The position numbers and the translations under genes are program-made. The notes beneath the pieces were generated by a model. The model was not told the DNA's origin, did not search any database, and was given only the letters and a program-made list of their open reading frames with translations. Of a stretch of 62,696 nucleotides of DNA, positions 33,404 to 51,393 are shown piece after piece. Source of the DNA: a virus; IMG/VR virus record IMGVR_UViG_3300045988_140792, positions 1-62,696 of that record. One strand, 5' to 3'. Each line of letters starts with the position of its first letter. Position 1 is the stretch's first letter.

Positions 33404-33451
33404 TTCCGCAATTCTTTTAAATGTAGAATTTCTAATATATTAGATGATAGT

Positions 33452-34001: not shown

Positions 34002-34036
34002 AAAAAGGGACTCGCTGTGAAGCAAGTCCCTTTTAT
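34002..34036. terminator. Bidirectional terminator
   Basis: AAAAA-GGGACT-(12 nt)-AGTCCC-TTTT between convergent genes. Confidence 0.6.
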
Positions 34037-34170
34037 TATATACCGGGCTACGAGTAAGCCCTCGTCACTTTTTTTATGCCGGGCTAAAAAGAAAAATCGA
34101 ACACAAAACCACATTGGCCAATCCTATTTCAAGGAAATATAGAACATTTTTCAGAATGGAGTGCGCCGGG

Positions 34171-37100
34171 CTACTCCATTCCGTTTAATGTTTCAATCAG
34201 CTCCTTTCTGGTCTTGCGAATCTCCACCATTTTGGCGGCATCGTTCTGACCGTCCATTTGCTTCTTAGCCTTATTCATCTTCCTTCTTGCAGCAGAGATA
34301 GCCTTTCTAGCTGCAAACAGTCGCTTGTTGGTCTTGCTGTTCTTGAAGGCATTAGCCTTCGCCTTGTCAACATCCTTCAAGCGTAGATACTCATCGTAGG
34401 TCTCCATCGTTCCGTTCCATACAGCCTGTATTCTCCAGTCCTCTGTCACATCCTCCGATTTCGCCTTCATCAAGTACTTGTTTTCAGCCTTTTCCATCTC
34501 CTTCAAATCATCCTCCCCATTCAGATAGCTCTGCACCATGTCCAGTGCCTCCTTCTGGGTGAATGCCTTATACTCGCTTTGAGAGAGGAATTTCTTCATC
34601 TTCTGGCGCATCTTCTTCTTTTCCGTGATACTCTTAGCCTCATCGAAGCGTTCGCTAGCCACCTGTAGAGAGGTAACACCGTCTTGCATTTCAGATGCCT
34701 CCAACGCCTTCACAGAAGAGATTGCAGCCTTCAACTGTTCTTCTGGGTCGATACCATTCTGTACACAAGCGTTGTAAGTCATGGCTAAACCTTGCTTATC
34801 CTCTGACATAATAAAGGTTTTGAAGTAATCCTGCGCCTTATATCTAGAGAATCCCTTGGAAGAAGGGAATACTAAATCAAGCATCTTAAACTCCTTATCC
34901 TTTTGAGTCGGAACTGCAAACGGCACATAGTAAGAAGCTAGTTTCGGAATCAAGCCAAGATTCTCGCCATACTTTCTCTGCATTTCCTTATCTGCATAAT
35001 CAGGCGACTTAAACCAATCGTTGGCATCTAATATACTTCTTAGCAGTGGACTTGCCTTTCCGTACATGCGCCTAACCATAGGGCCAGGAAACGCAAAGTT
35101 GTCTTTGGCATCAAAGAACAACTCAGGTATCTCTCTAAATTGCTTTCCATGACGGATATACATTTCTGTTCCATCAGCATAGCGACCCATAAAGATTTTG
35201 CTCTGTTGCCCTAGGCTATTGCCACGCATCAGGTAGTCATACCAGTGCATACCATCAGGATATGCTAATTCGTATGGTGACTTGTAGCTAGGATTTGTCT
35301 TACGTATCTCATCAGCCTTCTCCTTCTGCTTTTCTTCGTCCCATGCTCTCATTGCAGCATTAACCAGCTGTGACAAGCCTTCATATCCTATCATGAAGCC
35401 GACACCATAGCAAAGAAGGCCAGATTTTGAACGCGACAATCTCAAATAGTCTTCTTTGGTCATTTCACCTCTTCCAAGAACATGCTTGTAATATTCCCAG
35501 AAATTCTTGATGCTTGCTTCATTCCAGATTGAGCCATAGCCGAAGATAGACAATGCGTGTCTTGTTGTTGAGATAAGCCAGTCCTTTGAGAGGAATATGA
35601 AATCAAGAATCGTTTGCATCTTTTTGGAAATGCCAAGCACATCGAAGTGCTGACCTCCAAACATATCATTCACGAATTGACCATCTTCATCCAATGCCTT
35701 ATTCAACATATCTTCATCCCAATTCAATTTCTTGGCTCTTTCCATTGTACGCTCGGCACGTAGCTGATAAGTTGCCAGTTTCAAACCATCATGCAGATAG
35801 CTCCACAAGGCAACATCAAGACCCTTCTGTGACATCTTTAACAACTCCGTTGCAACCTCCAAAGGGAAAGTAACAGAAGAACCTGCCTTCATAGCTACAT
35901 TACCATCCACTAACTTGGAATGAAGTTTTGCCACATAAGAATGTACCTTCTCGTAGAGATTTTCAATATCTGCTGTTGCATAGTCAGAAGTAGAGCCAAA
36001 CTTTACCAAATGTTTTGCAGCCTCCTTAAATGCCTCTGGATTAGCAAAGGCTGGAAGTTGGTGAGTCTTAGCTGTGTCCGTAATCAGATACTTCATAAAG
36101 TAAGCCATAGCCTTTGCAGGTCCAAACTCAGCAGAGTTCTGAACAGCATACACCTCGGTTAATGCACCAGCATGGAAACCAGAAAAGCCTAACTCCAAAG
36201 TCTTTGCTATACTCATGGCATTCTTGACACCTTTCAGTACTTTTGGTATTTTAACAGTGCCAAATGCAGCATTAAACCAATCCTCGGCAGATTTGTTGAA
36301 TATCTTACCTTGGTTGTAAACCCAGACGGTATTAATGCCCGGAACAACGTAAGGAGTATATTTGTTCTCATCTACCATCATTTCTTTTGGCTGAATACTG
36401 GACAATAATGGCATGCTACTGATTATCTCACCATCCTTATTTCGCTCTATCACATTAATTCCACTCAATTCTTGAAGGAACGTCTTGTTTGCGAATGCCT
36501 CAATGTTACTTTGGCTGTAGTAAGCCAACAAGTCTGTTATGTCAGTTGTCTTAGGCACAAGTCCTGCATCAACACCTTCCATATAGGTACTTACCTTTCG
36601 AAGCTTTTCATTAGGACTCTTTGTGCGCTGTCTGCCTTCCACCAAATCTGCATAAGCCTTATCATCGCTTTTCTCCTTGTCCCATCGATGATTAACATAG
36701 TCTGCTGTATAGCCTATATCATCCCTTACGGTATGACTATCTTTCAACCAAGTGAATGTTTTATCATACCATTCTCTAATCTTACCAAGAAGAGACTGCA
36801 TTTCTTCACTCAGATTCTTATATTCGATACCTTTTGGCACAATTCGCTTCAAGACAACAGGAAGTACATGCTCGGCTAAGAAGTCCGTGCCATCAATAGG
36901 AACAAAACCTTCCTCACCATTATGATTTTCATTGATAGCTTTTGCCATCTTGCTAGCAACTTCCGTCATGGAAGGTACATCATCATAGACAATAGTTTCC
37001 TTACCATTCTTCTCTACCTTGTGGCTATTAGCAGCCAAATCTCGCAACTCTTCTGTAAACGGTTGAATAGCATCAACATCTTCTGCGGTTACATGAATAT

Positions 37101-40100
37101 GTCCATTCTCAAAAGCACCAACAGCATTCAACTCATTTGCAATATCACGCATTCTTCTAGGTGCCTCTATAATATAAGGTATAGCCTCAGCCATTCTCTT
37201 TGCCTGAGTCTTTGGAGTTTTGCCTGTAACTGTTTCTTTGACTACATCAGCAATAGCATCAGCCTTTCTTCCTAGATAGCTAGCATTAGCCATCTTGTTA
37301 AGTTCATGCTTTACGCTATTAATAAATATAGCATCGGTTGCAGATGCACTCTCTATATTCTTTCTACGATAGATAACAGCATCATGTACACTACGAGCTG
37401 CACCTTCCTTAGTTACATCGGTGCTAGTCACCTCTGCCAAGTCCTGCATCACTCGCTGCTCCAGTGCATCAGCCTTCGGATTGGTCTCTGCCGGATAAAT
37501 CTTACCCTCATACAAGTCTAGGTCGGCATCGTTCTGCTCGTTCAGTTCGTGTCTAGTCAGCCAGTCCTCATACTTCTGTCTAGCCTCGTCCTGCTTCTGC
37601 TTCTCGAAGGAGAACATATCAGGCATAGGATTTTCCGTGTCGCCCATGGCATCGTTCCACTTCTCCCACTCCTTATAGCGGTTCATAAAGGCATCATCGC
37701 TCTCACCTTCCTTGCGCTCTGGGCGAAGTGGCATTTCCTCGCCTCTCAGTCCATGGCTATCACGCCACTCCTTGTTAAGGCGTTCCCATTCCTTCTTGCC
37801 CTCGGCATCCTTGTCGAAGTCATAGAACATCGGTGGCTCTGGGTCTTCCTTATCCTCTCGGGCTTCCTTCCATCGCTTCCATTCCATCACTCGCTTCATG
37901 TATTGGATGGTACTCTCGCCCTTCTTCTGTCTCGGCTTGCCCTTGCCAGCACCATCAGCTAGCGCATCCTTGATTTCGGCATTGCTAGCCTGTGCCATCA
38001 TAGCCTCCTGCTTCTCCTTCGGCATATTGTCCCAAACGTGCAAAGCCTTACCTGCCTTCATCAGATAATATCTCAAATCCTTATCATTGAGCAAACCAGG
38101 AACACGGATGCCCAATTTCTTAAGCACCTTGATGAGATAATGCTTTATCTTAGTCCAAAGAGAAAAGTCCTCCGCTGTAGTTGGACCCTCCTCTGCAAGA
38201 TGGGCAATATACTCCTGCGTACCTACATTGATGCGGTCAGGATTGCTCCAACCTGGATCATACTTGTTGGCGAAGTCGAGAATCTTGCCCCTCGTCTTCT
38301 TATCTACAGACTTATATACGAAGTCCGCAAACTTTCTCACGCCCTGCTCACCACCAAGCAGCACTTCCATACCCTCATGTCCTATCTTCTCATGGAAGAC
38401 GGTTCTCTGAGCCTCATCGGCATCAGCACAGTTAGGCAGATAAACATGAACCGTGTGAGTAGTAGGGTCATACCATCCGGTAGCCCCATTCTTCACATCA
38501 CTCAGATAAGCATCCGGCACCTCATCTACAGAAGTATAAACCGTAGCCTCAGCACCACCCAGTTTGTTGGCAGTGTTCACTACCCGGTCGCTCACTTGTT
38601 TCTGCTTGTCTGCATCCCAGGTATTCTTAAAGATAGAGCTGCCAAGTCGTGCCAGTACATTTCTACCGGATAAGTCATCCTTATTCAGCAGAGGAGCAAT
38701 CACGCCCTTGGTCAACTGCACCGGAATACCATTGCCAATGATGGTATGCGCCAAAGATTCCGTCTTAGGCAACAGATAGTCATCGCCCAGTCCGGTAATC
38801 CTAGCCAATACCCTGCCATCAGCACGCAACACCTTTCCACCCGGCATGATGATTACGTCTCCGCTTTTAGTTCTCAACGTTGGCAGAATCTCATCACCAT
38901 AGGCATGAGGTATCTTTCCATCGGCATAGGCACTGCCCATTACATAAAGAGGCTTCTCCACCTTCTGCCAGTCGATTCCGTCAGCCTTCAGTCTGGCATC
39001 CATCCATGGTGCCACACCGTTTTTCTTCTCCGTCAGGGTAGGAAGAATATCCTCCACAGCCTCTAGCCATCCACCCTTGCGTGGTTGCTTCTTAGGCTTC
39101 TCCGGCAGTTCTCCGTCCTTCACGGCTCTAACAATCAGTCGCTCCCTGCTGGTATAACCACCAAAATCTGCGGCATTATAAACGTCAGCATCCCATTTGT
39201 AGCCGTTCTTATCCAGTGCCTGGGTGATAATCTTCATCGCCTCAGAGTCCTTGTAACCCTTCACGTTCTCGATAGTCACCACTCGCGGTTTCACGGCATC
39301 AATGAAGTCGGCAGTACTCTTGGCAGTCTCCTTGTCAAGCTCCACCTCGCCCCCATTGCTCTTAGCCTGAGAGTAGTTCTTGCATACAGGCGAAGCATGG
39401 AAATACTCCACCTCGCCATCAATATGCTTCACCAGTTCCTTAGGGTCCACGTCTCTCACGTCAGCCGTAACAATATGCTGTCCGAAGTTGTTGCGATACA
39501 CACCGCTTATCTTCCGGTCATACTCCACAGCCACCACTGGGTCGATGATGCCCTTCAATCCCTCTTCTACCAGTCCACCACCACTAAAGTAGGTGCCGGC
39601 CTTCATCAGCGAATCAGGATGCTTCTGCAACTTCTGCTCCAAGATAGGAGATTTCACGATACCCTTACTGCCCCATTCCTTGAAAGCGTCCTTGGTCATT
39701 TTCACGTCCACGAACTGAGCCTGAGGAAACTCCTTCTTCAACTCGTTCATCTGAGCCAGGAACTTCTCCTTAGTCTCAGGAGCCTGCTGGCCCGACTCAT
39801 CGGTAGTAATAGGCACACCCAGTTTAACCAACTCCCTCAACTGATTAGGAGTAACCACGTTCCAAGGAATAGCCAGCCCTGTACCATCCAGCTGCTCTGC
39901 GATACTCTCAGCAACCTCAGAATCAGGAACCACTCTCACCGCCTTTCTCCAGCGAGACAACATCACCGACCTCTGTCTATCCTTCGGCAACAAACCATTG
40001 ACGGAACCCGAATGCCAAGGCACAAGTCCCACGGCATCCTTTGCACCCTCAGCACGATAGCCACTGGTCTTCTCGCTCTCCGGAATCTCCCATTCCACAA

Positions 40101-43100
40101 CCTTGATATTACCTCTGGCATAAGCCCCGGTAAACTGGTCGTTCATCATCGAAGTAGAAGTATGCATATAAGGATTGTAGGCAGCACGCACTGGCCCTTC
40201 TCCTGCCCCAGGGGTCTTGTCGGTCTTCACAAGTTGGAACTTTCCACCCTTCACAAGGTCCGGTCTCTCATCAGCCCCCATCCAGGCACCAATCTCGGTA
40301 GCATCAGTACGCTTTCCGTCAATGATAGCAGCCATAGGCGAGTAGAGCTTACCATCCACCTCCTGCATTCCGCTATACATCCGGAAAGTCTTCTCCTTAT
40401 TCAGCCTCTCCAGTTCCTCCGGCTCAGTCACTCGATGGAATCGGATTTCATTATTGCTATTGATAGCCTCATTAAAGGCACGATTACGGTCACCTTCCTT
40501 CTCCTTATCATATTCGTAAATCTGCACACCAGCATTCTGCAAAGCCTGCTTTACCTCGTTACTAGCCGTTGTTGGAACCACAGCAGAAGAGAACTCATCA
40601 AAGCCTACAGGACGTTCAAACTTGGTTTCAAAGTACATGGCTGGGTGCTCTTCCTTGATTGCCTTAACCATTTCCTTCAAACGTTTTGTGTCCTCATCCG
40701 AGAAGTCCACATTATACTCCTTCTTCAAATATGCTTGTGGGTCGCTTGTCATTGCAGCCTCAGAGAGTCTTGCCAAACCATAATCATCAAAAGTACCAGT
40801 TGCATCAGGCTGGCACTTCATGCCAAGTTCAAAGAATACATTCGACCACTTTTCTCTGAAATCATCAAATTTCTCACGGTCAGAAGTCAACAACCCTTTC
40901 TTAGAGCGAATATCCTTTAATGTCCCATAAGAAGGCATCAGTTTTGCAGCAAAGTTCTGGAAAGATACCGATGTACCAGTTGCACCATTCCGACCTTGTT
41001 TCTTCATTATCTTGGAAACATTCTCCAAGGTGTTTGGCACATATCTACGATTGCCACTAGGAGTAAAACCATCAAAGATAACCTCCTTTATGCCATATTC
41101 CTTTTCCTTACCTTCCAGCCAAGTATTGAACTCATCTGTCAGGTTATTGGTCTTAATGTAGTCTTCAACCTCATTAAGCGTAGCATTCATGTCAACGCCA
41201 GTCTTACGATGGTCATACTCTACATCACGGACGAAGGTCTGCACAGCCTTAAAGTTGAAACCATATTCATCATACAGTTCAACATTCTCCTTGGCAATGG
41301 CATATCTCATTCCACCATTAGCACCAGCATCAACGATAGACTTGTTTCTTTTCAGCCAAGCCTTGGTCTTCTCCTCATACAAATCCTTATCGCCATCAAA
41401 CTTTGCTTCAATGTACATATCCAAGACCTTCTGGGCATCAGCCTTGCCGATACCATTGATATTGAAGTTTTCAGCAGTAATAGACTTCAACTCGTTATAT
41501 GCTTCATCACTAAACTTATGCTGCATCTTCTTCGGTTCAGGAGCCACACCCTTTTCGTGAAGGAACATATAAGCCATAGCAGAGTTTTCTTCTCCACCAT
41601 CCAGCCATCGGTCAAGTCCTCTTCTTACCTCGCTATACATATCGCTAGGAACAGAACTAACATCATTAGAAGCTTTTTCAGACCCCTTATTACTCATCTG
41701 CCTCTCTACTTGCGGATAGGTAGGAGTCCAAGCATCGCCCTGCCAAGTTCCTGCGTTCTTTCCAGTTTTCTTAGCCACCTTATCAGAAGGCAATATCAGG
41801 GAAATGTCACCATAGTCATCATGGTTCTGCTTACTAGTGTCAATGACTGCCACAGATGGATTGGCAAGACCACCCTGTTTGATAGCCTTCAATAGCTTCT
41901 CTTCTGATATATTATGCACTCCGGCAAGAGTTTTTGGGTCCTCCAATGAAAACTTTTTGCCGTTTTCCTTGGTAGTTTCAAAACCTTTTATTATCTTTGC
42001 AACCGTAATAGAGTTGTTGGAATTGCGGGGAGAGGTCATAGCTACGTCTCCACTTTGACCGTCCAGCAGCTCTATTTTTGTTGCTTCATAGCTATAGAGC
42101 TTTGTTTTTTCATGTGTTCTTACATTCTCTTTCAATGTAATCTTTACACCATATACCTTGCCACCGATATTCACTGCACCATAGCAACGATGAATCATAA
42201 CATCAGGATTGATACCAAAATCTTCACTACGGTCATTTCCTACCTTATTGCGGTCAACATGCTGGATAGCATCAATACTTTCACGAAGTACTGAAGGCAA
42301 AACCTTCAATACACTCATGTGTACATCTTTGTTTGCAGTCTTCTTAACCGCCTTTTCAGACAAATACTTACCAACAGCAGTGTTACTGATATTTATCTCA
42401 CCCTTACCACCAGTTTCCTCGTTATTGTAAGTTCTGACAATATTCTTCTTAGCCCATTCTCTTGCCTCTGCATAGTTCTTAAAACCATGCTTTGCCTCTG
42501 CATTCACAATATTTACAGGAGTATTTGCAATCTCTGGAGTCACCTCAACAGCATCTTTCTTAGCAAGGCGAGACTTCAAATTACGTGGGTCCACCCCATT
42601 CGCCAAGTCTCTCAGCACAAGATTACGAATATCCTCCAAGGTCATTTTCTTAATGTCCTCAGGCTTCCACTTCGTAAATGTATCAAGAGTCCAATACCAG
42701 AACTTCTTCAACCAATTCTTCAATCGGTTGATGATAGTAAGCTCTTTAGCGGTGTCTAACGGATTTTCCTTAATGGCATCCTTCGCCATCTGTTCCAGGA
42801 TGGCAGCACCATCCTCACCAGTCAGACGAGCAAAAGCCTCATCGCAAATCTCATCATCGCTCAGATGCTTATAGTTAGGGTCCTCCTTCAAGTCGGCAAA
42901 CAGCTGGGTCTGCATGATGAGTTTATCACCATGCTCAATAAGCTCCGGATTCATGTTCTTGGCAGCAGTGCGCCAAAGATGCTGATACTCATGGATAGGT
43001 GTATTAGGATTCAGATGCTCCTGATTCAGTACTATCTCCTTGCCATCAGTGTAGCCATAAACCACACCCTTGCCCTGCGCAAACTTAGTATTACCAACGA

Positions 43101-46100
43101 TATTGGCATTGTTCTCATCGAATATCACGTAGTTGTAATCGCCTTTCTCAGCACCGCCATAGATAGTGCCAGCAGGGTACTTGATTCCAACAAATCCAGC
43201 ATCACTCAACAACTTACTAGCCGCCTCTTTAGAACCAAGCATAGAAGAAAGCTCATCATACAAGTCTTGACCTCTTACCTTACCATCAACATGACTTGGA
43301 TAAATGGTATCAATAGGTTCCTTGCCAATTCTAACCAACTCTTTATTTACCTTATTCAAATGAGATTTTTTCAGTCTATTCTCCCAATCAATGTAATCTC
43401 CATTATCGTCAGGAATATCCACATCATAAAGATAAGCAATATTATCAGGAACAGCTATTTCTTCATTCTTTTTTGCAAGAATATTGCTAAGTTCCTTCAA
43501 ATCCTCATCATCAGGGAACATTTCTAGAGCAGAAGAGAGGTCTTTTCTCATAGCATCCAATCCCTTATCTACATCTTTATGTTTATAGATATATTGTCTT
43601 ACCATATCTTTGTTATTGGCAGACAAATCTGTCACAAATTCAAAACCGCCATTATCTTTCCTTATCTTGGCACGTCTTGTGTAGTCCTCAGCAATATCCT
43701 TAGAGTTGGTAACATAACCACCCCAACCAAATGCTTGCGAACCTTCTCCCTCACCCATGTGGCTGAAATCGAACTTGTCAAAACTAGCACCAGTACCATG
43801 ATAAGTACGCAAGAATCTCACTCCAGGCTGTACAATAGCCTTCAACTGTCTGTCCAAATCCTTATATTTCGCAAACAAGGAATCAAGTTTATCTTGATAT
43901 TTCTCATGAGCCTTATCATTCAATTTACTCCAAACATCATCAGGAATATCGTTTTCAGAAGCCAGTCCATGCTCATCCATGTACTCCTTCATCAACTGAA
44001 TCTGATAATTGTTACGTTCTTGTCCGGTTGAGTTATAAGCATCCTCTGTCTCCTTAATCTGCTTCTTTAACTCGTTCCTCTTATTATTCTGTGCATCAAC
44101 CTTATAAGGGTCAAACTCGCTAGGAACATCACCTTTTACGTTTTTCACCTGCTCCTCGAAAGGCTTATTGAGGTCAAAAGCCTTGTAGTTGCCGATTCTC
44201 CAAGCGTTGGTGTAGTACTTGCGCCACTGCTCCGCCAAGCTCTTCTTCTCGAAATACTCGGGCATCTGGTTAGGGTTATCCATGTTCACGATGGCATACT
44301 GCGCATACTTATCTGGGCGATGCTCAGTTGCCCAGTCGTATGCAGCCTTAGCAGCCTTCTTCTGCTCAGGTGTCTTGATGTTGAAACGAAGCTGTGGGTC
44401 GCTCATCAGCATAGAGATAGCAAGATTATCCTGCTCTTCTGCCACCTTCTCCATCTCCTCGTTGCTTATCACCCTTACAGGTATTCCAGCCTTCTTAAGC
44501 ATAGCAGAAACGGCATCAAAAGCCACCTTCTGCGCCTCCGTCATTTCCGAAGGCTTCACCTCCTTTATATCGCGATTAAAAGAAGCAAGTGGCACAATTT
44601 TATGCACACCAACAGCCGTTAAATAGCCCTGTGCGTTAAAGCGAGGATTCAACTCATAAGCACATACATTGTCCTTATCTACCCAAGAAACACCCTGGCG
44701 ATACTTCTTTGTACCAAACCATTTCTTTTCGCTTGGATAGAGTTTATCCCCATTGATGTTAGAAGAAAGCATAGTATATCCATACTCTGGCTTGTCTTCT
44801 CTATCTTGGTGGAAATTAAGCAAACGCTCTGCAAACTTCTGCATCTTAGGCTTATCTTCCTCCGAAGGATGCACATCATTCTCGTATGTATATTCCATAT
44901 CTGAAATAAAGTCCTGATGAGCACCTTTCTTAATCATTGCATAGTCCGCAAATGGCTTAGTCTTGCGGTCGGAAGACTCTAACCACTTATCGAAGGTAGT
45001 CTTAGGTACAGAAGTAACCTTACCAAGTCCCTTCCAGCCCTTGGAGTAGTTGGCAAGATAAGCCTCTGTAGCAGCCTCCTCAGAAGGATAGCCATACATC
45101 ACCTTATGCTCGTCAAACTCACCAGTCTCTGGGGTCACCTGGTCAACAACATAAACATTACCATCAAAAGTATCAAGGTCGGCACCATCATTAATGAACA
45201 TGTCGATATGGTCACCATCCACGCCAATCTTGCCCAAAATATAGCCATAGGTGTCGTGCATGGTCACGCTCCAAGGCTTGCCCTGCTCGTCCTTACCGCT
45301 ACGTGTTGCGCCCTTCGGTGTCTCTACAGTAAAGTCATAGCCACCGAAGGACAAATGTCCCTTCTTATAGTTACCTGCCTTCTTCTGAGCCTCAGAAGGG
45401 TTAGGCTCAGTCTCGGCAATGGCATTCTTTAAACGTTCTCCGAAGGATGCTTCTTGCGGTAGATGTGCGCCTCGAACAACTGAGCCTTCGCCAGGTTCCA
45501 TGCTGCCAGTCTCTTGTCGCCCTGTGCGTCCGCTATCAGTGCTCTCTCCAGTCTCGGACTGAGAAGATGCTTCTCTGCCACTAATTTCTTCGCCTTGGCG
45601 ATTTCCTTCATCAACTCCTCTCCGTGAAGAGTCGCTACCCAGGCCACCGCCTCCTCCATATCCTTCTTCATTGCTTCTGTCATCATAATCTGCTATTTCT
45701 GGTAAAATTGATTTAACATATTCTTTATACTCACGCTCACGTTCCTCAGCCTCCAGCATACGGTCGTATTCCATGCCTTCGATGGCGTTAAGTTCGCTTT
45801 CAGTTGGCAAAGATAATGCTTTATCTTGAATATACGAATTATATTCTTCGATTTCTGCCTGTCTTTCGATGATTTCACGCTCTTTCTGGGCTTCATACCA
45901 TTCTTCCTCTGCCGAAAGTTCCTCCTCTGCTGCAGCAATTCGGTTCATAAGTGCCACGTTACGCATATCCTTCACGTTGTCGTAGGACTTGAACATATCC
46001 AGCAAGGTGTTTCTCACATCTTGGTCGGTATATCCCATATCCTGCAAGTTTACAGGAAGGTCATTGAATACTCTCACGGCAAATTCATTAACCGACATAC

Positions 46101-49100
46101 CGGTTCCTTTCTTGGCAATAAGATAATTGAACTTATTAGAATCATACCGCTTGCCAATACCAAACTTGAAATTACTCTTGCCCAACTCATATTGAAGAGA
46201 TTCCGGATTCAAACTATGTGGACTCAAAGATTCAGATACAGCCTCTTCCAAAGTCTGAGGCGTTAAGTCCATAACATCAATAGAAGCATCCTTGTATATC
46301 TCTTTGATTGACCCAAGGTCATTCTTCTTCAACGCATCAGCCACAAGAACCTTGCGCTGCTCAGAAGGAGTCAATTCTTCCATCGCCTTGGCTCTCTCCT
46401 CCTTATTCTCTGCACTATATAGAGTATTGAGCAACTTATCCTGTGCCTTCAAATCCTTTGCCGATGCAGATAGATTAGCCTGTCTAGCCTCCAACTGCGC
46501 CTTGGTAGTGTTCAATTCTTTCAACTGGTCAGCCGAATAATCAATATCACCATTCATATATTGCTCCAGGGCTTCATTAATATCATCTATCTGTGGCTGC
46601 ACCTCATCGTTCTGAATATGATAGATGCGTTTACGCTCAGAGGCAATATAATTGCTAGCCTCATCCATGGTAGGATATTGCTTCTTCAATTCTTTATTGT
46701 CAAGCACAGCCACCTCACGCTCATCCGAAGGACTGCCAACACTATCATCCACACCTGCCTTCTCGATTTCAGCCTTGCGCTCATTCTTCAAGGTTCTAGC
46801 CTCCTCTGGAGTCATAACCTCCTTGCGGATAGCATTCCAGTTCTTATAACGAGTTTCAAGGTCGGCAATCTGCTCATTAACAAGTGCCAAGTCGTTCTCC
46901 ACCTTCTGAGCCTTCTCTGGGTCCAAGTCGGCATTGAGAGATAGCCAGTCCTCATATTCAGATGCAGCCTTTCTCTTGTTATCCAACTGTTCCTTGATGT
47001 CAGAACGGCTACCACTGATAAGATTCATCAGTTTACCATGGTCATTGCCAAATTGCTCCTGTAGATACTCAGCTGCCACCTTTGGCTCTGTGTCCTTAGA
47101 CGAATAATCTGGCTGTTTCATGCCCAAGCCAACGATACCTTCATTATATCGTTGCTTCTTGTCTGCCTCAGCCTTGGCTGCATCATCGTTGGCACGCTGT
47201 ACATCCTCGGCATCCAGCTCTGCACCAATAGAGGAATCGAGTGCGTTCTGTCGCCAAGAGTTAAACTCATCCTTGGTCAGGGCGATATTGTCCTTGCCAT
47301 CAGAAAGCACAATCTTGCCATCCTCGCTATATCCTGCAAAGGTCATTTGCATAGGTTCCTCACCTGCTTCCATGGCTACCTCCACGGTGTCGCTAGGCTT
47401 CAACCCACTGCCATCATACTGGGCAAAGAACTGCTGCTGTCTAGCATTCTTCTGCTCAGTAACCTGCTGATTGATGTAATCATCAAGAGGAATAGGCGTG
47501 CCCACTTCCTTGATTTCGGCACTAGAAACCTGCTTGATGGCAGGATTTCCATCCTCATCAGGCACAACCACAAAGCCCCCACCATACTCATTGGCTTTCT
47601 TCAAGAATACCTGCTGACCAGTAGTAAGGGTAGCTGGAACGATATTTCCGTCTTCCGTCTGATAAGTCCAAAGAAGCTCCTTCAAGGCATCACCATAGCC
47701 ATCATCAGCATGTTGCAGAGCATCATAAACGCCTTTCTTGGCATCCTGTGCCTCCACATACTTACGCACGGCATCCTGTTGTGCTGGAGTCATTGAGTTG
47801 GCACGCTGAGCCACAAACTGCTCCATGTCCTTGCCATCCTCATACGCCTTCACTACAACATTCATCTGTGCCTCATCATCACCAAAGGCACGCTTCAATC
47901 TAGCCTTCGACACATCATCGTTATGGTCAATCGCTTTCAAGCCCTCAGCATCCCCATTCTGGTAGGCATTCTGTCCCATCACATAGGCATCAGATTTGCT
48001 TTCATTGGAAGCGGTATTAGCATCAGAAGGGCTGGCACCGTTCTCCATCAAAGGTGTACCCTCCACATTTGTAGGCGTTTCACCCCCAACAGGAGGCGTT
48101 GGCGGTTCTGTTGGTGGAACATCAGAAGAAACAGAAGCATCTACAGGCTTTTCAGCTGTAGCCTCAGCATTCTGAGCCGAAGCACCACCTTCTTGTGTGG
48201 CACCAGGCAGTTCACGCTGTCCCTCAATCAAGTTTTGATTCATCTGTTCCTTTGCATCGTTCATTTCTCGTTTCAGCACGATGTCGTTATAGAGCTGCTT
48301 CTGGTATTCCTCCACAAGTTTCTGTTGTTCGGCTGTGCGAGACTTTCCATCACCCTCTAGAGCCTTGCGAAGCGTACCATGCTCCACACCTTGCGAATCC
48401 TCGAAGGTGCGCACATACTCCTTCATGATAGGGCTATTCTCGAAAGCACTATCATAGAAGTGGCGATAACTGTTCACCATCTGCTGCTCTTGCTCGGTCT
48501 GTTCCATGCCCTTCTGCTGTTTCTGCATGATGTCACCGATGGCACTGGCATTCTGATGAAGATAGATTGCAGCCTTATCCTCGTCATTCAGTTGCTCACC
48601 TGCGGCATACCTATCCCTAGCTTGCTCATATACAGTGTTCAGTCTGTCCTGCAAGGCATCGGTATGGTAAGCCTTTTCATACTCAGAAGTGATATTCAGC
48701 GACTTCTCGAAGTCTAGCTTCTTCTCTGCCTTCTGAGCCTCTTCAAGCGAAGAATACTCCTTGCGGTCGATGATGCCACCATCCTTATTCAAGGTTTCGA
48801 GATATACCTTGCCATCATTATCCATTGGCTGCACAATAATAGAGTCGATAACTGGCGAGAAGGAAGAAGGGCGTTTTCCTTCCACCACAGCCATCATCTT
48901 TGCCTTCAATACCTCTGGCACGCTCTTATCGTTCATTAGGTTCATGTACTTATCAGTGAGTTGCCCCATCATCTGCACACCTTCACCATCTGCACGATAA
49001 CCATTGATGCCCAACTTCTCGAAGGCATCACGCAAATCATCATAGCCGAATCTCTTCAACTCGGCAATATCTTGGTCGTTGAAGTCAAACTTGCGGTTAA

Positions 49101-51393
49101 ACTCCTTGGCATCCTTGAATCGGGCATACTTGCCCACCATACCAGGCAAACCGATGGAAGTAAGGTTAGCCATGCTCTCCAAGAAACTCTCAGCGGCATC
49201 TTTACCTGTAGGCTTGAAGTTCGGGTCGTGCGCCATGCGCTCCAGCATCTGCTGCCCGGTCATGATACCGGAATCCACTACCTTTCCACCAACATCAGCA
49301 AGAATATTGGTAGCCAAACCTCTACCCTTACCTATCATATTGGCAATAGTATTACCCTGCATAATGACACCTAAGGCACTCTGCTTACCTCCCTCTAATA
49401 AAGTATCAAGCGCAATCTTCCACCCAGAAGGATGGTAAATCTTGCCATTCTCATCAAACTGACCAGTGCGATATTTTTCATCAATAGGCTTCGAGATAAC
49501 AGACTGACCACCAAAGGTAACAGCACCATGCACAGCACCGTTCTTCAAAGCCACGTCCTTACTCTTGCCGATAAGCACCTTGGCAGCTCGCTCAGCCACC
49601 TTGCGCTCCATGCCCTTAGCCATCAGGTCACCTGCCAGTTTGCCCTCAGCCTTGGCAATCATGCTCTTGGTCAACTTGCCACCTGCTGCTCCCGGCAACC
49701 AATAACTCCAGGCATCCCCTGCAAAGGTCAACGCTCCACTGCCTACTCGCTCCCAGAAGCCAGGCTGATATTGTTGATTGGCAATATCCTCCAACCAGTT
49801 CTGATAGTCGGTCTGCATGATTTTGCGAGAAACCTTGCCGATGATGGTGTTCTCGATACCTGTCTTCAAGATGTAGTCTGCACTACCCCTTGGTATCATT
49901 CCCTTCACCTCTAGCTGGTCAAGCTCGTTCTTGATGGCTGCATTAATCATTGGCTTGAATTGCTTAGGGTCGCCACTTAGAACACCATTCATGCCATATC
50001 GCTGCATAACCTTGAAGGCTGCGTTGCTCATATCGTTCAAGAACTGAGGATTCTGGTATAACTTGCCAAACTTCTTCTGCAAATCACCCAAAACCTTCTG
50101 AGGGTCGCGAGTCTTGTTTGCCTCAGAGATTGCACCGATAGCAAAAGGAGAAGCCGAATCCACATACTTATACTGCTCGTTATACTTCGCCATCTGTGCA
50201 TTAGAAGCCGCCTCTGCGTCTTGAATAGCCTTGGCTACAGATGTGCTGGTATATTTGCTGATAACGTCAGAAAGTGCATCATTGATGTCTTGGTTCATCA
50301 GTCTGTCCTGTACATGCTCATCGTGAGAATAGAGGCGTGTGGCGAGGTCTTCCGCTGTTTTGCGGTAGTTCTCACCATACTTCTTCACAAGGCTCTCCAC
50401 CATGGCTGGCTTCACCATACCATTCACAAACTGGTCATAGCCATCCGTCCGAGTGATATAGTTACCGTTCTCATCCACTGCCACATTGTTCTGAATACCA
50501 AGTTGGGCAGCCATCTTCTTCAAGTTGTCCTGCACGGCATGCGAATACCAAGCCCCATCAATAGCTTGGTCGATATTCTCCACCGAATCATCTAGCTTAC
50601 TAACAAACTCATCAGTAGTTCGTTGAGCGAGGCGATTTGCTGCACGGTTCATGGCTCCCATAGCCATACTTTGTGCCTCCTCTTGATTCTGAGCTTGTCC
50701 GCTAGCCATCAAGTCATACATAGTTTCAGACAAAGCATCGCCCTTGCCTACATATTTATTATAGATAGCATCCACCTGCTGGACTGGAGCTGCACCTGTA
50801 ATTGCATCAACATCCTTCACAGTAGGCTTAGGTTGCTCGGTAGCTGGTGCTTTCTCTTGATTAGAATGCTGTACCTGCTGATTATTGTCTTGTGGCTGCT
50901 GCATATTATCACCAAGAAGCATATTGGTAATCATGCCACCCATTTTCTGCTCTCTGCCGATATTACCTGCATCCACCTTCGGCATCATGCCGAGTGCTTG
51001 CGAAATCAAGCTAGGCTTCTTTAGCTCACCTCGCTGATACTCATCATTCAGCTGTGCCAAGTCCTTGAAGTTGCCCGGCTTGTTGTCAGGAGAGTTGAAA
51101 GCATCAATCACCTCTTGCGGATATTGAGACTGCTTTTTCTCCTTAGAAGAAACACTCTGCCCACTACTCTGAGGAGTTGAAGGCTTTTGAGCAACAGGTG
51201 CCTTAGCAGAAAGATATGTCTCTAAAGATTTTTGGTCTTTAAAATTATCATATCCTGCTTCACTTAATGCATTATAAAGTGTAGCTACATTTTTGCTGTC
51301 AGAAACATAGTCTCTAAACTCCTGCTCTGTACCAACATCATCATAACCATCATCAATTAACGCTTGATGTAATTTCTTTATATTATCGTCCAT
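34171..51393 (-). CDS. Giant 5,740-aa multidomain (polyvalent-type) virion/ejection protein candidate
   Basis: A single uninterrupted ORF in the late block. It contains PPase-like, ART-like, zincin-like and complete C5-methyltransferase motif sets (see sub-features). Confidence 0.9.
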   Translation of the reverse strand: MDDNIKKLHQALIDDGYDDVGTEQEFRDYVSDSKNVATLYNALSEAGYDNFKDQKSLETYLSAKAPVAQKPSTPQSSGQSVSSKEKKQSQYPQEVIDAFNSPDNKPGNFKDLAQLNDEYQRGELKKPSLISQALGMMPKVDAGNIGREQKMGGMITNMLLGDNMQQPQDNNQQVQHSNQEKAPATEQPKPTVKDVDAITGAAPVQQVDAIYNKYVGKGDALSETMYDLMASGQAQNQEEAQSMAMGAMNRAANRLAQRTTDEFVSKLDDSVENIDQAIDGAWYSHAVQDNLKKMAAQLGIQNNVAVDENGNYITRTDGYDQFVNGMVKPAMVESLVKKYGENYRKTAEDLATRLYSHDEHVQDRLMNQDINDALSDVISKYTSTSVAKAIQDAEAASNAQMAKYNEQYKYVDSASPFAIGAISEANKTRDPQKVLGDLQKKFGKLYQNPQFLNDMSNAAFKVMQRYGMNGVLSGDPKQFKPMINAAIKNELDQLEVKGMIPRGSADYILKTGIENTIIGKVSRKIMQTDYQNWLEDIANQQYQPGFWERVGSGALTFAGDAWSYWLPGAAGGKLTKSMIAKAEGKLAGDLMAKGMERKVAERAAKVLIGKSKDVALKNGAVHGAVTFGGQSVISKPIDEKYRTGQFDENGKIYHPSGWKIALDTLLEGGKQSALGVIMQGNTIANMIGKGRGLATNILADVGGKVVDSGIMTGQQMLERMAHDPNFKPTGKDAAESFLESMANLTSIGLPGMVGKYARFKDAKEFNRKFDFNDQDIAELKRFGYDDLRDAFEKLGINGYRADGEGVQMMGQLTDKYMNLMNDKSVPEVLKAKMMAVVEGKRPSSFSPVIDSIIVQPMDNDGKVYLETLNKDGGIIDRKEYSSLEEAQKAEKKLDFEKSLNITSEYEKAYHTDALQDRLNTVYEQARDRYAAGEQLNDEDKAAIYLHQNASAIGDIMQKQQKGMEQTEQEQQMVNSYRHFYDSAFENSPIMKEYVRTFEDSQGVEHGTLRKALEGDGKSRTAEQQKLVEEYQKQLYNDIVLKREMNDAKEQMNQNLIEGQRELPGATQEGGASAQNAEATAEKPVDASVSSDVPPTEPPTPPVGGETPTNVEGTPLMENGASPSDANTASNESKSDAYVMGQNAYQNGDAEGLKAIDHNDDVSKARLKRAFGDDEAQMNVVVKAYEDGKDMEQFVAQRANSMTPAQQDAVRKYVEAQDAKKGVYDALQHADDGYGDALKELLWTYQTEDGNIVPATLTTGQQVFLKKANEYGGGFVVVPDEDGNPAIKQVSSAEIKEVGTPIPLDDYINQQVTEQKNARQQQFFAQYDGSGLKPSDTVEVAMEAGEEPMQMTFAGYSEDGKIVLSDGKDNIALTKDEFNSWRQNALDSSIGAELDAEDVQRANDDAAKAEADKKQRYNEGIVGLGMKQPDYSSKDTEPKVAAEYLQEQFGNDHGKLMNLISGSRSDIKEQLDNKRKAASEYEDWLSLNADLDPEKAQKVENDLALVNEQIADLETRYKNWNAIRKEVMTPEEARTLKNERKAEIEKAGVDDSVGSPSDEREVAVLDNKELKKQYPTMDEASNYIASERKRIYHIQNDEVQPQIDDINEALEQYMNGDIDYSADQLKELNTTKAQLEARQANLSASAKDLKAQDKLLNTLYSAENKEERAKAMEELTPSEQRKVLVADALKKNDLGSIKEIYKDASIDVMDLTPQTLEEAVSESLSPHSLNPESLQYELGKSNFKFGIGKRYDSNKFNYLIAKKGTGMSVNEFAVRVFNDLPVNLQDMGYTDQDVRNTLLDMFKSYDNVKDMRNVALMNRIAAAEEELSAEEEWYEAQKEREIIERQAEIEEYNSYIQDKALSLPTESELNAIEGMEYDRMLEAEEREREYKEYVKSILPEIADYDDRSNEEGYGGGGGLGSDSSRRGVDEGNRQGEEISGREASSQSETGESTDSGRTGRQETGSMEPGEGSVVRGAHLPQEASFGERLKNAIAETEPNPSEAQKKAGNYKKGHLSFGGYDFTVETPKGATRSGKDEQGKPWSVTMHDTYGYILGKIGVDGDHIDMFINDGADLDTFDGNVYVVDQVTPETGEFDEHKVMYGYPSEEAATEAYLANYSKGWKGLGKVTSVPKTTFDKWLESSDRKTKPFADYAMIKKGAHQDFISDMEYTYENDVHPSEEDKPKMQKFAERLLNFHQDREDKPEYGYTMLSSNINGDKLYPSEKKWFGTKKYRQGVSWVDKDNVCAYELNPRFNAQGYLTAVGVHKIVPLASFNRDIKEVKPSEMTEAQKVAFDAVSAMLKKAGIPVRVISNEEMEKVAEEQDNLAISMLMSDPQLRFNIKTPEQKKAAKAAYDWATEHRPDKYAQYAIVNMDNPNQMPEYFEKKSLAEQWRKYYTNAWRIGNYKAFDLNKPFEEQVKNVKGDVPSEFDPYKVDAQNNKRNELKKQIKETEDAYNSTGQERNNYQIQLMKEYMDEHGLASENDIPDDVWSKLNDKAHEKYQDKLDSLFAKYKDLDRQLKAIVQPGVRFLRTYHGTGASFDKFDFSHMGEGEGSQAFGWGGYVTNSKDIAEDYTRRAKIRKDNGGFEFVTDLSANNKDMVRQYIYKHKDVDKGLDAMRKDLSSALEMFPDDEDLKELSNILAKKNEEIAVPDNIAYLYDVDIPDDNGDYIDWENRLKKSHLNKVNKELVRIGKEPIDTIYPSHVDGKVRGQDLYDELSSMLGSKEAASKLLSDAGFVGIKYPAGTIYGGAEKGDYNYVIFDENNANIVGNTKFAQGKGVVYGYTDGKEIVLNQEHLNPNTPIHEYQHLWRTAAKNMNPELIEHGDKLIMQTQLFADLKEDPNYKHLSDDEICDEAFARLTGEDGAAILEQMAKDAIKENPLDTAKELTIINRLKNWLKKFWYWTLDTFTKWKPEDIKKMTLEDIRNLVLRDLANGVDPRNLKSRLAKKDAVEVTPEIANTPVNIVNAEAKHGFKNYAEAREWAKKNIVRTYNNEETGGKGEINISNTAVGKYLSEKAVKKTANKDVHMSVLKVLPSVLRESIDAIQHVDRNKVGNDRSEDFGINPDVMIHRCYGAVNIGGKVYGVKITLKENVRTHEKTKLYSYEATKIELLDGQSGDVAMTSPRNSNNSITVAKIIKGFETTKENGKKFSLEDPKTLAGVHNISEEKLLKAIKQGGLANPSVAVIDTSKQNHDDYGDISLILPSDKVAKKTGKNAGTWQGDAWTPTYPQVERQMSNKGSEKASNDVSSVPSDMYSEVRRGLDRWLDGGEENSAMAYMFLHEKGVAPEPKKMQHKFSDEAYNELKSITAENFNINGIGKADAQKVLDMYIEAKFDGDKDLYEEKTKAWLKRNKSIVDAGANGGMRYAIAKENVELYDEYGFNFKAVQTFVRDVEYDHRKTGVDMNATLNEVEDYIKTNNLTDEFNTWLEGKEKEYGIKEVIFDGFTPSGNRRYVPNTLENVSKIMKKQGRNGATGTSVSFQNFAAKLMPSYGTLKDIRSKKGLLTSDREKFDDFREKWSNVFFELGMKCQPDATGTFDDYGLARLSEAAMTSDPQAYLKKEYNVDFSDEDTKRLKEMVKAIKEEHPAMYFETKFERPVGFDEFSSAVVPTTASNEVKQALQNAGVQIYEYDKEKEGDRNRAFNEAINSNNEIRFHRVTEPEELERLNKEKTFRMYSGMQEVDGKLYSPMAAIIDGKRTDATEIGAWMGADERPDLVKGGKFQLVKTDKTPGAGEGPVRAAYNPYMHTSTSMMNDQFTGAYARGNIKVVEWEIPESEKTSGYRAEGAKDAVGLVPWHSGSVNGLLPKDRQRSVMLSRWRKAVRVVPDSEVAESIAEQLDGTGLAIPWNVVTPNQLRELVKLGVPITTDESGQQAPETKEKFLAQMNELKKEFPQAQFVDVKMTKDAFKEWGSKGIVKSPILEQKLQKHPDSLMKAGTYFSGGGLVEEGLKGIIDPVVAVEYDRKISGVYRNNFGQHIVTADVRDVDPKELVKHIDGEVEYFHASPVCKNYSQAKSNGGEVELDKETAKSTADFIDAVKPRVVTIENVKGYKDSEAMKIITQALDKNGYKWDADVYNAADFGGYTSRERLIVRAVKDGELPEKPKKQPRKGGWLEAVEDILPTLTEKKNGVAPWMDARLKADGIDWQKVEKPLYVMGSAYADGKIPHAYGDEILPTLRTKSGDVIIMPGGKVLRADGRVLARITGLGDDYLLPKTESLAHTIIGNGIPVQLTKGVIAPLLNKDDLSGRNVLARLGSSIFKNTWDADKQKQVSDRVVNTANKLGGAEATVYTSVDEVPDAYLSDVKNGATGWYDPTTHTVHVYLPNCADADEAQRTVFHEKIGHEGMEVLLGGEQGVRKFADFVYKSVDKKTRGKILDFANKYDPGWSNPDRINVGTQEYIAHLAEEGPTTAEDFSLWTKIKHYLIKVLKKLGIRVPGLLNDKDLRYYLMKAGKALHVWDNMPKEKQEAMMAQASNAEIKDALADGAGKGKPRQKKGESTIQYMKRVMEWKRWKEAREDKEDPEPPMFYDFDKDAEGKKEWERLNKEWRDSHGLRGEEMPLRPERKEGESDDAFMNRYKEWEKWNDAMGDTENPMPDMFSFEKQKQDEARQKYEDWLTRHELNEQNDADLDLYEGKIYPAETNPKADALEQRVMQDLAEVTSTDVTKEGAARSVHDAVIYRRKNIESASATDAIFINSVKHELNKMANASYLGRKADAIADVVKETVTGKTPKTQAKRMAEAIPYIIEAPRRMRDIANELNAVGAFENGHIHVTAEDVDAIQPFTEELRDLAANSHKVEKNGKETIVYDDVPSMTEVASKMAKAINENHNGEEGFVPIDGTDFLAEHVLPVVLKRIVPKGIEYKNLSEEMQSLLGKIREWYDKTFTWLKDSHTVRDDIGYTADYVNHRWDKEKSDDKAYADLVEGRQRTKSPNEKLRKVSTYMEGVDAGLVPKTTDITDLLAYYSQSNIEAFANKTFLQELSGINVIERNKDGEIISSMPLLSSIQPKEMMVDENKYTPYVVPGINTVWVYNQGKIFNKSAEDWFNAAFGTVKIPKVLKGVKNAMSIAKTLELGFSGFHAGALTEVYAVQNSAEFGPAKAMAYFMKYLITDTAKTHQLPAFANPEAFKEAAKHLVKFGSTSDYATADIENLYEKVHSYVAKLHSKLVDGNVAMKAGSSVTFPLEVATELLKMSQKGLDVALWSYLHDGLKLATYQLRAERTMERAKKLNWDEDMLNKALDEDGQFVNDMFGGQHFDVLGISKKMQTILDFIFLSKDWLISTTRHALSIFGYGSIWNEASIKNFWEYYKHVLGRGEMTKEDYLRLSRSKSGLLCYGVGFMIGYEGLSQLVNAAMRAWDEEKQKEKADEIRKTNPSYKSPYELAYPDGMHWYDYLMRGNSLGQQSKIFMGRYADGTEMYIRHGKQFREIPELFFDAKDNFAFPGPMVRRMYGKASPLLRSILDANDWFKSPDYADKEMQRKYGENLGLIPKLASYYVPFAVPTQKDKEFKMLDLVFPSSKGFSRYKAQDYFKTFIMSEDKQGLAMTYNACVQNGIDPEEQLKAAISSVKALEASEMQDGVTSLQVASERFDEAKSITEKKKMRQKMKKFLSQSEYKAFTQKEALDMVQSYLNGEDDLKEMEKAENKYLMKAKSEDVTEDWRIQAVWNGTMETYDEYLRLKDVDKAKANAFKNSKTNKRLFAARKAISAARRKMNKAKKQMDGQNDAAKMVEIRKTRKELIETLNGME
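38371..38394 (-). other. Second metallopeptidase-like motif HEKIGHEG (residue ~4334)
   Basis: The context GWYDPTTHTVHVYL...AQRTVFHEKIGHEGMEVLL looks like the peptidase modules seen in large phage/plasmid proteins. It is HExxxH rather than the canonical HExxH. Confidence 0.3.
38690..39600 (-). other. C5 cytosine DNA methyltransferase domain embedded in the giant protein (about residues 3932-4235)
   Basis: Motif I YFSGGG (39574..39588), motif IV SPVCKNYS, motif VI TIENVKG, motif VIII SRERLIVRA and motif X GNGIPVQL (~38728). Confidence 0.75.
42979..42993 (-). other. HExxH zincin motif (HEYQH, residue ~2801) in the giant protein
   Basis: NPNTPIHEYQHLW, immediately C-terminal to the ART-like segment. 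Confidence 0.4.
43110..43830 (-). other. ADP-ribosyltransferase-like segment, H-Y-E clade pattern (about residues 2522-2761)
   Basis: RTYHGTG (compare diphtheria toxin YHGT), GWGGYVT (G-x-Y-[FV]-[AT]) and GDYNYVIFD (compare PARP YNEYIVYD, but without the Glu). Confidence 0.35.
45030..45400 (-). other. Segment of the giant protein resembling family I inorganic pyrophosphatase (about residues 2006-2121)
   Basis: AGNYKKGH...TVETPKGATRSG...TYGYILGKIGVDGDHIDMFI resembles the PPase core (YGYI..T...DGDP.DV). Confidence 0.4.

Follow-up and report, generated by a model that had tools for sequence, protein, structure and literature searches.

The virus record IMGVR_UViG_3300045988_140792 of IMG/VR (positions 1–62,696, hereafter the window; its length is 62,696 nucleotides (nt) and coordinates refer to it) carries a single open reading frame (ORF) of 5,740 codons, whose product we call the giant. 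Our preferred reading, to which we assign a probability of roughly 0.6, is that the giant belongs to the phage-type polyvalent proteins, is encoded by a temperate, short-tailed Segatella (Prevotella) copri phage, and is packaged and ejected with the DNA, its enzymes being released inside the cell. The evidence supports placing it in an already described class, the phage polyvalent proteins, and equivalents of it are already in GenBank. On the sequences compared, its organization is a conserved N-terminal arm (N-arm), a swappable cargo and a conserved C-terminal arm (C-arm), a pattern that is new; no prior description of the giant gene in Segatella or Prevotella phages was found in the literature. 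To our knowledge, polyvalent-protein delivery rests mainly on sequence and context analysis and a few exemplars (P1 Dar, N4 vRNAP, T4 Alt), and giants such as this 5,740-amino-acid (aa) protein are experimentally untried.

Multiple conflict domains occur together in this one polypeptide, and its gene lies near virion genes in a phage with a portal–terminase system. The original prediction, made from the sequence alone, proposed a polyvalent protein among virion genes, and this is borne out by polyvalent Pfam families above cutoffs, conserved zincin motifs, a promoter motif and the neighboring portal gene. The prediction had also asked for significant domain matches; in a Pfam scan run on overlapping 1,500-aa tiles with curated gathering cutoffs, four domains passed: InPase, LPD3, PBECR5 and DNA_methylase. 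The first three are Pfam families originally defined from polyvalent proteins. The modules listed in the prediction were accurately positioned, LPD3 and PBECR5 being missed. Thus, the pyrophosphatase-like core placed at ~45030..45400 is InPase (PF18823, 44977..45393), the HEYQH zincin motif lies exactly at 42979..42993 and is conserved in homologues, and the C5-methyltransferase motif set placed at ~38690..39600 is complete (motifs I, IV, VI, VIII and X) and coincides with PF00145 at 38698..39588. The second peptidase-like motif is HEKIGH (38377..38394), a conserved HEXXXH variant of a kind described for polyvalent-protein metallopeptidases in passages of PMC5512222.

The single 5,740-aa ORF is confirmed as genuine. 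It runs uninterrupted on the minus strand with one stop and no N, as originally described, and encodes a protein with a computed mass of 645 kDa and pI of 5.3. An exact 75-bp duplication at the window ends (1..75 = 62622..62696) is consistent with a circularly closed and complete genome of 62,621 bp, of which the giant gene occupies 27.5%; the phage is apparently complete, temperate and active. The architecture and coding share had been called unusual, a view that does not hold within this phage clade, where the size of the ORF and its share of the genome are typical. In four independent S. copri assemblies the homologue is a single frame of 5,203, 5,705, 5,916 and 5,215 codons, the last lying in the finished chromosome of strain G8. 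Syntenic giant ORFs are also present in three cultured temperate Bacteroides phages (Gut Microbes 2025, PMC12694917): BKO1-TP3 gp55 (PQ571269; 5,553 aa, annotated 'DarB-like antirestriction'), BS-TP4 gp3 (PQ571277; 5,391 aa) and BF1-TP2 gp68 (PQ571263; 3,633 aa). Independent assemblies that split the ORF had been named as a means of overturning the prediction; the four S. copri assemblies and three phages keep it single, and two lineages are broken, so that on the whole this check does not overturn it. In loci L004 and L005, which come from two separate samples, an identical 1-nt deletion (GGAATA to GGATA) occurs at aa ~2304, after which homology resumes seamlessly in the other frame (L004 16840..16880, L005 11470..11515); a GTG lies 5 nt past the new stop. 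Loci L006 and L007, which resemble the intact L011 gene, have a frame change with an ATGA overlap and, opposite a Tyr codon, a TAG (15448; 20395..20397). Stop-codon recoding was considered for the in-frame TAG of L006 and rejected because there is a single TAG against a Tyr codon and a plain nonsense change is simpler. Judged by these sequences, the gene is normally one giant ORF and the breaks are lesions of particular lineages; the broken loci probably lie in decaying prophages. The ratio of nonsynonymous to synonymous substitution rates (dN/dS) against relatives was 0.24 for the N-arm, 0.16 for aa 3642–5474 (late cargo and C-arm) and 0.065 for the C-terminal module, the lowest value and hence the most constrained part. 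Purifying selection acts on both arms.

The division into arms and cargo emerged from mapping which residues of the window protein are matched in 37 giants of 4,000–7,483 aa. The conserved N-arm including InPase (aa ~400–2150) was matched in 15–26 of the 37 and the C-arm (aa ~4250–5740) in 20–37, and the center, aa ~2200–4240, was variable. InPase itself was found in 25 giants and the first zincin-like domain (zincin-1) in 23, LPD3 in one, and residues 2200–2500 are common to only one to three. The methylase was matched in none or one of the 37, yet is present in the close relatives L004, L006, L008 and L009. Among relatives whose N-arms are 85–91% identical, InPase is followed by ART-PolyVal, LPD23, PBECR5, PF18810, PF18819 or DNA_methylase. 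Differing domains thus stand behind near-identical N-arms, and the center is therefore read as an exchangeable cassette between two recombination-competent arms. The cargo segment between PBECR5 and the methylase (aa 3336–3930) gave no family match in Pfam, PHROG or a PDB sequence search, and is common to BF1-TP2 gp68 up to aa 3692. The methylase has motifs I FSGGGL, IV SPVCK (Cys4004), VI ENV, VIII SRERL and X GNGIP, motif IV being P-V-C instead of P-C, and its sequence matches include M.HhaI (aligned across 277 residues) and M.HaeIII. NCBIfam and PADLOC scans returned methylase matches only, and the PDB sequence search only methylases and an InPase–portal match. A megablast of the giant gene against GenBank phages gave no match, and its flanks gave one 150-bp methylase match.

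Next to the variable segment at the start of the cargo are an ADP-ribosyltransferase (ART)-like module and zincin-1. The original prediction described the first as an H-Y-E-type ART segment. The match to ART-PolyVal (PF18760; aa 2528–2573, profile 7–46 of 140 only) is partial, its score of 26.3 bits is below the cutoff of 31.2, and the family is of the H-Y-D and not the H-Y-E type. The motifs (Y/W)HG(S/T)G, FG(W/Y)GxY and NYVIF are conserved in the homologue alignment. According to passages of PMC5512222, ART-PolyVal (Tox-ART-HYD2 clade) has its H, Y and D on strands 1, 2 and 5, respectively. The acidic residue after NYVIF is not fixed. An AlphaFold model of aa 2505–2960, with a mean predicted local distance difference test score (pLDDT) of 71, puts H2532 and Y2560 on strands, and its fold resembles diphtheria toxin and RES toxins only weakly (E about 0.75 to 3.5). 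The ART identity suggested by these models is unproven. The zincin-1 part of the model (pLDDT 86–94) has three strands, the HEXXH helix and a helix bearing E2852, and homologues keep NPNTPxHEYxHLW and a downstream E. The MPTase hub domain is similarly described, in passages of PMC5512222, as an HEXXH/HEXXXH helix, a downstream Glu helix and a three-stranded sheet. Zincin-1 is thus a probable zincin-core peptidase, as predicted from the model. The best PDB match of the combined ART and zincin model was a chain of the cyanophage A4 pre-ejectosome (9k3a_B, probability 0.91, TM-score 0.19); a profile search of the same region against the PDB found no match. We treat the two parts as independent modules because each also occurs without the other in other proteins.

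The C-arm begins with the second zincin-like region (zincin-2), whose HEKIGH motif is conserved in the homologue alignment. This region was found in 21–24 of the 37 giants, and each of the three giants from Bacteroides phages in GenBank has it too (profile E 1e-65 to 1e-70). Beyond it lies the C-terminal module, with motif GRYADGTEMYIRHGKQFREIPE and near-invariant motifs such as GRYxDGTExYxRxGKQFRExPE. Searching exhaustively with the final 1,200 aa gave 515 representative clusters, in which the module is always at the extreme C-terminus; the proteins are about 1,000 to 7,483 aa long, and 37 of the best 150 clusters have 4,000–7,483 aa. The modeled C-terminal module (pLDDT 77) is mainly helical. 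It matches the C-termini of many viral BFVD entries named 'large polyvalent protein associated domain-containing protein' (E to 7e-14), and one BFVD structural neighbor is labeled LPD38. Assignment to LPD38 or another Pfam family was rejected, since 0 of 40 members match the relevant Pfam families at E ≤ 0.01. The original prediction saw hydrophobic stretches in the C-terminal region, but no 19-aa window anywhere in the giant has a Kyte–Doolittle mean above 1.5, i.e., none is of transmembrane grade. The C-terminal region instead looks like a soluble, conserved helical module. A minimal locus, L015 (9453..15772), encodes a 181-aa protein with 59% identity to the 167-aa protein that heads the giant's operon, then a 1,167-aa protein equal only to aa 4587–5739 of the giant, then a P22-like portal. 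The 426-aa gene is missing there, as is an integrase on that side, and the locus may be either naturally short or derived by deletion.

At the other end, the N-arm has at least 77 relatives at 55–91% identity and terminates in a Gly/Ser/Glu-rich linker (aa ~1900–1990) ahead of InPase. The N-arm proper had no Pfam, PHROG-function or NCBIfam match, and tblastn of the N-terminal 2,000 aa against GenBank phages gave zero matches at E 1e-5. The 'DarB-like' family phrog_10089 aligns to aa ~1405–2361, covering only positions 595–1178 of its 4,647. InPase has the acidic metal-binding motif DGDHIDMF at aa 2059. The first ~65 aa of the giants occur in two alternative conserved forms. One, LYxxLxxxGYDxGTxxEF, is carried by the window giant and about 18 others; the other, 'MPxxKxxYxLxVDGK...ATxRM', by about 16 giants in a compared set that included P0078–P0166, BKO1-TP3 gp55 and BS-TP4 gp3. 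P0078 is 82% identical to the window giant across aa 87–2957, yet has the opposite form, so that this N-terminal tag is swapped among close relatives; it may serve to address the chain or to bind a partner.

The giant gene is third in its operon, after ORFs of 167 and 426 aa, and its ATG begins 1 nt past the stop of the 426-aa ORF (which ends at 51395), as had been predicted. The late promoter proposed at 53223..53270 contains the 17-mer GTTGCGCAACTTATCAC at 53252..53268, with a copy upstream of the portal gene. The window holds seven matches to GTTGCGCAACTTATCAC against 0.14 expected, and none of 100 shuffles reached seven. Copies lie upstream of several operons; GTGAGAAAAA comes next at two sites, and the portal copy is followed by a Bacteroidetes-type -7 element (TAnnTTTG). 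From this enrichment we take GTTGCGCAACTTATCAC to be a phage promoter or operator element tying the giant's operon to the structural genes, probably a site bound by a phage late regulator or sigma-like factor. In the 167-aa protein the Kyte–Doolittle 19-aa maximum is 1.8 (residues 3–21); homologues of this protein occur in BKO1-TP3 and BF1-TP2. The 426-aa protein had no family match in the family library scans; in relatives its slot is occupied by ORFs of 419–465 aa.

The gene order is integrase, 167-aa ORF, 426-aa ORF, giant, P22-like portal and SU10-like capsid, with a terminase-like ORF on the downstream side and a helix-turn-helix repressor-like ORF on the upstream side. Between the capsid gene and the lysis genes there are only ORFs of 150, 241, 412, 95 and 986 aa. 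Family library scans of the genome's ORFs found no tape-measure, sheath or tail-tube family, and no other candidate for a large internal protein was found in the genome. The integrase and repressor setting together with the lack of tape-measure, sheath or tube matches points to a temperate, short-tailed, podovirus-like phage. The host is taken to be S. copri because relatives sit integrated in its genomes. Coordinates are collected in Table 1.

Table 1. Positions of the giant gene, its parts and the surrounding features in the window
Feature	Position	Strand	Remarks
Giant ORF	34171..51393	-	ATG start, 5,740 codons, one terminal stop, zero N
N-terminal tag, aa 1–66	51196..51393	-	Tandem ~25-aa repeat LYxxLxxxGYDxGTxxEF
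Conserved N-arm, aa ~67–1990	45424..51195	-	Acidic, partly low-complexity or helical
InPase (PF18823), aa 2001–2139	44977..45393	-	E 4e-51, 172.8 bits (cutoff 26.8), profile 1–135/135
Variable segment, aa 2140–2504	43882..44976	-	No recognizable domain
ART-like module, aa ~2505–2770	43084..43881	-	YHGTG (H2532), FGWGGY (Y2560), NYVIFDE
Zincin-like peptidase 1, aa ~2771–2957	42523..43083	-	HEYQH aa 2801–2805 (42979..42993), downstream E2852
LPD3 (PF18798), aa 2975–3093	42115..42471	-	E 9.5e-13, 48.8 bits (cutoff 27)
PBECR5 predicted RNase domain (PF18814), aa 3150–3335	41389..41946	-	E 3.8e-20, 73.2 bits (cutoff 25), profile 10–212/239
Unannotated cargo segment, aa 3336–3930	39604..41388	-	In 12–17 of 37 giants
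C5 cytosine DNA methyltransferase (PF00145), aa 3936–4232	38698..39588	-	E 1.4e-27, 97.4 bits (cutoff 22), profile 7–319/324
Zincin-like peptidase 2 region, aa ~4252–4542	37768..38640	-	C-arm start; HEKIGH (HEXXXH variant) aa 4334–4339 (38377..38394)
C-terminal module, aa ~4587–5740	34174..37635	-	Core aa 4860–5740; motif GRYADGTEMYIRHGKQFREIPE aa 5403–5424
426-aa ORF, operon gene 2	51395..52675	-	N-terminus Ser/Thr/Pro/Ala-rich, then Gln/Ala/Lys-rich
167-aa ORF, operon gene 1	52691..53194	-	Hydrophobic Gly/Ala-rich N-terminal segment
GTTGCGCAACTTATCAC, promoter- or operator-associated motif	53252..53268	-	17-mer, partly palindromic; heads three-gene operon
GTTGCGCAACTTATCAC, exact copy	33351..33367	-	Upstream of portal gene
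GTTGCGCAACTTATCAC, exact copy	14133..14149	-	
GTTGCGCAACTTATCAC, near-copy	6195..6211	+	
GTTGCGCAACTTATCAC, near-copy	27379..27395	-	
P22-like portal gene	31247..33304	-	Next structural gene downstream of giant; PF16510 E 2.9e-34; phrog_156
SU10-like major capsid protein	24887..26455		Downstream of giant
Tyrosine integrase	53851..55317		Upstream of giant

On the preferred reading, the giant consists of an N-arm of ~2,100 aa ending in InPase, a cargo of ~2,100 aa and a C-arm of ~1,500 aa. It would be made late, along with the 167-aa and 426-aa proteins, and loaded into the capsid near the portal by its conserved regions, the C-terminal module being the likeliest. At infection it would leave via the tail as loosely folded domains on a string, like N4 vRNAP, through an envelope-spanning channel that the 167-aa and 426-aa proteins might build. 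Inside the cell the zincin domains may cleave the chain and so free its individual enzymes; the methylase could shield incoming DNA from restriction, and the ART-like, RNase-like and pyrophosphatase modules could disable host proteins, RNAs or nucleotide signals before phage gene expression. We infer packaging and ejection from several observations. A virion location is indirectly favored because an InPase domain is fused to a solved portal (9b41_L, found by sequence search against the PDB), because PHROG families containing InPase have labels that include 'virion structural' and 'minor head protein', because an A4 ejection protein carries a metallopeptidase, and because this operon is the only ejection-protein candidate in a short-tailed genome. 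The synteny is kept in isolated Bacteroides phages and S. copri prophages.

Several points weigh against this reading. Packaging is deduced from genome context. The split gene is tolerated in two lineages, so that a single chain is not obligatory. The ART match falls short of the threshold, with no third catalytic residue pinned down; neither zincin matches Pfam MPTase-PolyVal in the scan of the giant; and the TM-score of the A4 match is low. A fold search of the C-terminal module against the PDB gave no match (best E 0.57), solved ejection proteins included. The C-terminal ~900 aa of the three GenBank Bacteroides-phage giants do not match the C-terminal module profile, so the module cannot be a universal packaging element clade-wide. 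Homology to N4 gp50–52 was considered and rejected: with profiles of both arms and of the C-terminal module, and with the two small operon proteins (167 and 426 aa), bit scores did not exceed about 4.

The main role of the giant might instead be structural: it would be an essential ejection protein, the largest one in an ejectosome or internal core, with arms that form or anchor a DNA conduit and enzymes that are accessory or serve envelope penetration or DNA entry. The constants of the family, as the minimal L015 form illustrates, are the C-terminal module and the 167-aa partner by the portal; the cargo varies and can be dispensed with, constraint is strongest in the C-terminal module, T7 and N4 have parallel operons, and the short-tailed genome offers no other ejection-protein candidate. 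We nevertheless regard this explanation as rather unlikely, since the giant has no transmembrane-grade segments, no lytic transglycosylase or other wall-degrading domain was found in it with Pfam or PHROG, known ejection proteins are matched in fold or sequence only by the weak A4 hit, and a DNA methylase and RNase-like and ART-like cargo act on cytoplasmic targets. We advance a broader proposal tentatively: the 167-aa protein and the ~1,150-aa C-terminal module beside a P22-like portal, the constant core of the family, would be an unrecognized ejection apparatus of short-tailed Bacteroidota phages and the giant its largest subunit and expandable carrier, with whole effector cassettes swapped by recombination between the arms and a dimorphic tag of 65 aa addressing the chain to a partner. 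If true, proteins from 1,000 to 7,500 aa would be one machine with different payloads.

A giant that is never packaged, and acts as a late cytoplasmic multi-enzyme in the producing cell (methylating progeny DNA, shutting down the host or excluding competitors), seems improbable. Late co-expression with structural genes is no proof of packaging, the methylase could act on replicating DNA, and some prophages tolerate splitting of the gene. Such an enzyme would hardly explain ~3,600 aa of non-enzymatic arms under purifying selection, however, and for progeny DNA the phage has a separate C5 methylase and another methylase-like ORF. The conserved portal-side position, the InPase–portal fusion in a solved virion and the documented association of the family with virion genes (passages of PMC5512222) likewise favor packaging. 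That the ORF is a chimeric assembly artefact or a decaying fused pseudogene is scarcely credible: the frameshift and nonsense codon of L004/L005 and L006/L007 might hint at decay, but the window's 5,740 codons contain no stop, the window is circularly closed, the intact architecture is collinear in four S. copri assemblies, three isolated phages and 37 clusters, and dN/dS is well below 1 along both arms.

The separate methylases of the phage are a stand-alone C5 methylase of 428 aa (60644..61930, plus strand; phrog_363, E 4e-71) and a 200-aa ORF (18078..18680, minus strand) matching phrog_799 'DNA methyltransferase'. This pair of genes, additional to the giant's domain, suggests a division of labor between methylating progeny DNA and methylating incoming DNA. 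Past the giant's stop there is a hairpin and T-rich, terminator-like element (~34000..34180). Between the giant gene and the portal gene lies a small opposite-strand ORF (33359..33922, plus strand) without family match. In L006 this place is taken by a 158-aa ORF and in BF1-TP2 by several regulatory genes; it looks like a moron insertion site. Elsewhere, a 986-aa ORF (19091..22051, minus strand) downstream of a tail-fibre-like ORF lies in an island of 31% G+C, vs about 45% elsewhere, and has a weak C-terminal InlB B-repeat-like match. It is probably a recently acquired receptor-binding protein.

S. copri is a prevalent human gut bacterium, and intact relatives of the giant are available in strain G8 and in cultured Bacteroides phages; packaging, ejection and cleavage of a 645-kDa chain are thus directly testable. 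The arm/cargo/arm map shows experimenters which part is removable (the cargo) and which parts to retain (the arms). The ~3,600 aa that are conserved and under selection without a family model are targets for structure determination, and the swappable cargo offers a catalogue of candidate anti-defence enzymes from gut Bacteroidota.

Cyanophage A4 gp28, which has a lytic transglycosylase and a metallopeptidase, and T7 gp16 are podovirus internal or ejection proteins with enzymatic domains: large, stacked on the portal inside the capsid and equipped with hydrolytic domains, as the giant would be on the preferred reading. Unlike A4 gp28 and T7 gp16, the giant has no transglycosylase domain, is four to five times larger and carries cargo for cytoplasmic targets.

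The N4 ejection cassette offers a parallel in layout. Passages of PMC13434306 describe gp52 (150 aa), gp51 (644 aa) and gp50 (vRNAP; 3,500 aa), of which gp52 and gp51 form an envelope channel and gp50 is expelled last, like beads on a string. In N4 gp50, as set out in passages of PMC5512222, an N-terminal helical injection region precedes the central catalytic cargo and a zincin-containing C-terminal encapsidation region. The operon of 167, 426 and 5,740 aa mirrors gp52–gp51–gp50 in its small, medium, giant order. Unlike N4, the phage is temperate rather than lytic, its portal and capsid types differ and the giant has no RNA polymerase domain. The resemblance to N4 is one of analogy, not membership.

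A likeness to the P1 Dar system is also apparent, in that the giant would likewise be a large internal head protein bearing a methylase and leaving the virion with helpers and DNA. In P1, DarB (~2,000 aa, methylase-bearing) is packaged, co-ejected and protects DNA from restriction, with the helpers DarA, Hdf, DdrA, DdrB and Ulx (passages of PMC12810830). The giant uses a C5 methylase, not one of the N6-adenine type, and neither helicase nor N6-adenine methylase domains were found in it with Pfam, PHROG, NCBIfam or PADLOC. P1 is a myovirus, and its DarB combines an N6-adenine methylase with a helicase. A 'DarB-like' family assignment was therefore rejected, the domains that define DarB being absent, and the GenBank label is loose. 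DarB, anti-restriction or polyvalent proteins were not found mentioned in the available passages of PMC12694917.

The closest correspondence is with the polyvalent proteins of Iyer et al. 2017. Phage-type members have two to fifteen distinct, mostly enzymatic conflict-type domains per polypeptide, and are predicted to be packaged and co-injected, with domains freed by zincin proteolysis (passages of PMC5512222). Like them, the giant strings unrelated effector domains into one chain beside portal and terminase genes, and its repertoire is theirs: InPase, LPD3, PBECR5, putative zincin MPTases including the HEXXXH variant, an ART-PolyVal-like module and a DNA methylase (PMC5512222, in part). What sets it apart is that neither its N-arm (~2,000 aa) nor its C-terminal module (~1,150 aa) has a Pfam or LPD model; the arm/cargo/arm layout, the dimorphic tag and the constant small partner gene were not found in the available passages of PMC5512222. 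In PQ571263, PQ571269 and PQ571277, an ORF beside or near the portal gene (L001 26207..28234; L002 24971..25599; L003 20340..21993) carries the label 'tail spike protein'; its own structure-alignment note says terminase in BF1-TP2 and BS-TP4, two of the three records, and the label is likely a mis-annotation. The giants of these Bacteroides phages differ from that of the window in that sequence identity is limited to a few modules and the cargo sets are other ones. They have the same synteny (small ORF, ~370–440-aa ORF, giant, portal); InPase, the zincin-2 region and the N-terminal tag are common to both, and their N-arms resemble that of the window giant at profile level.

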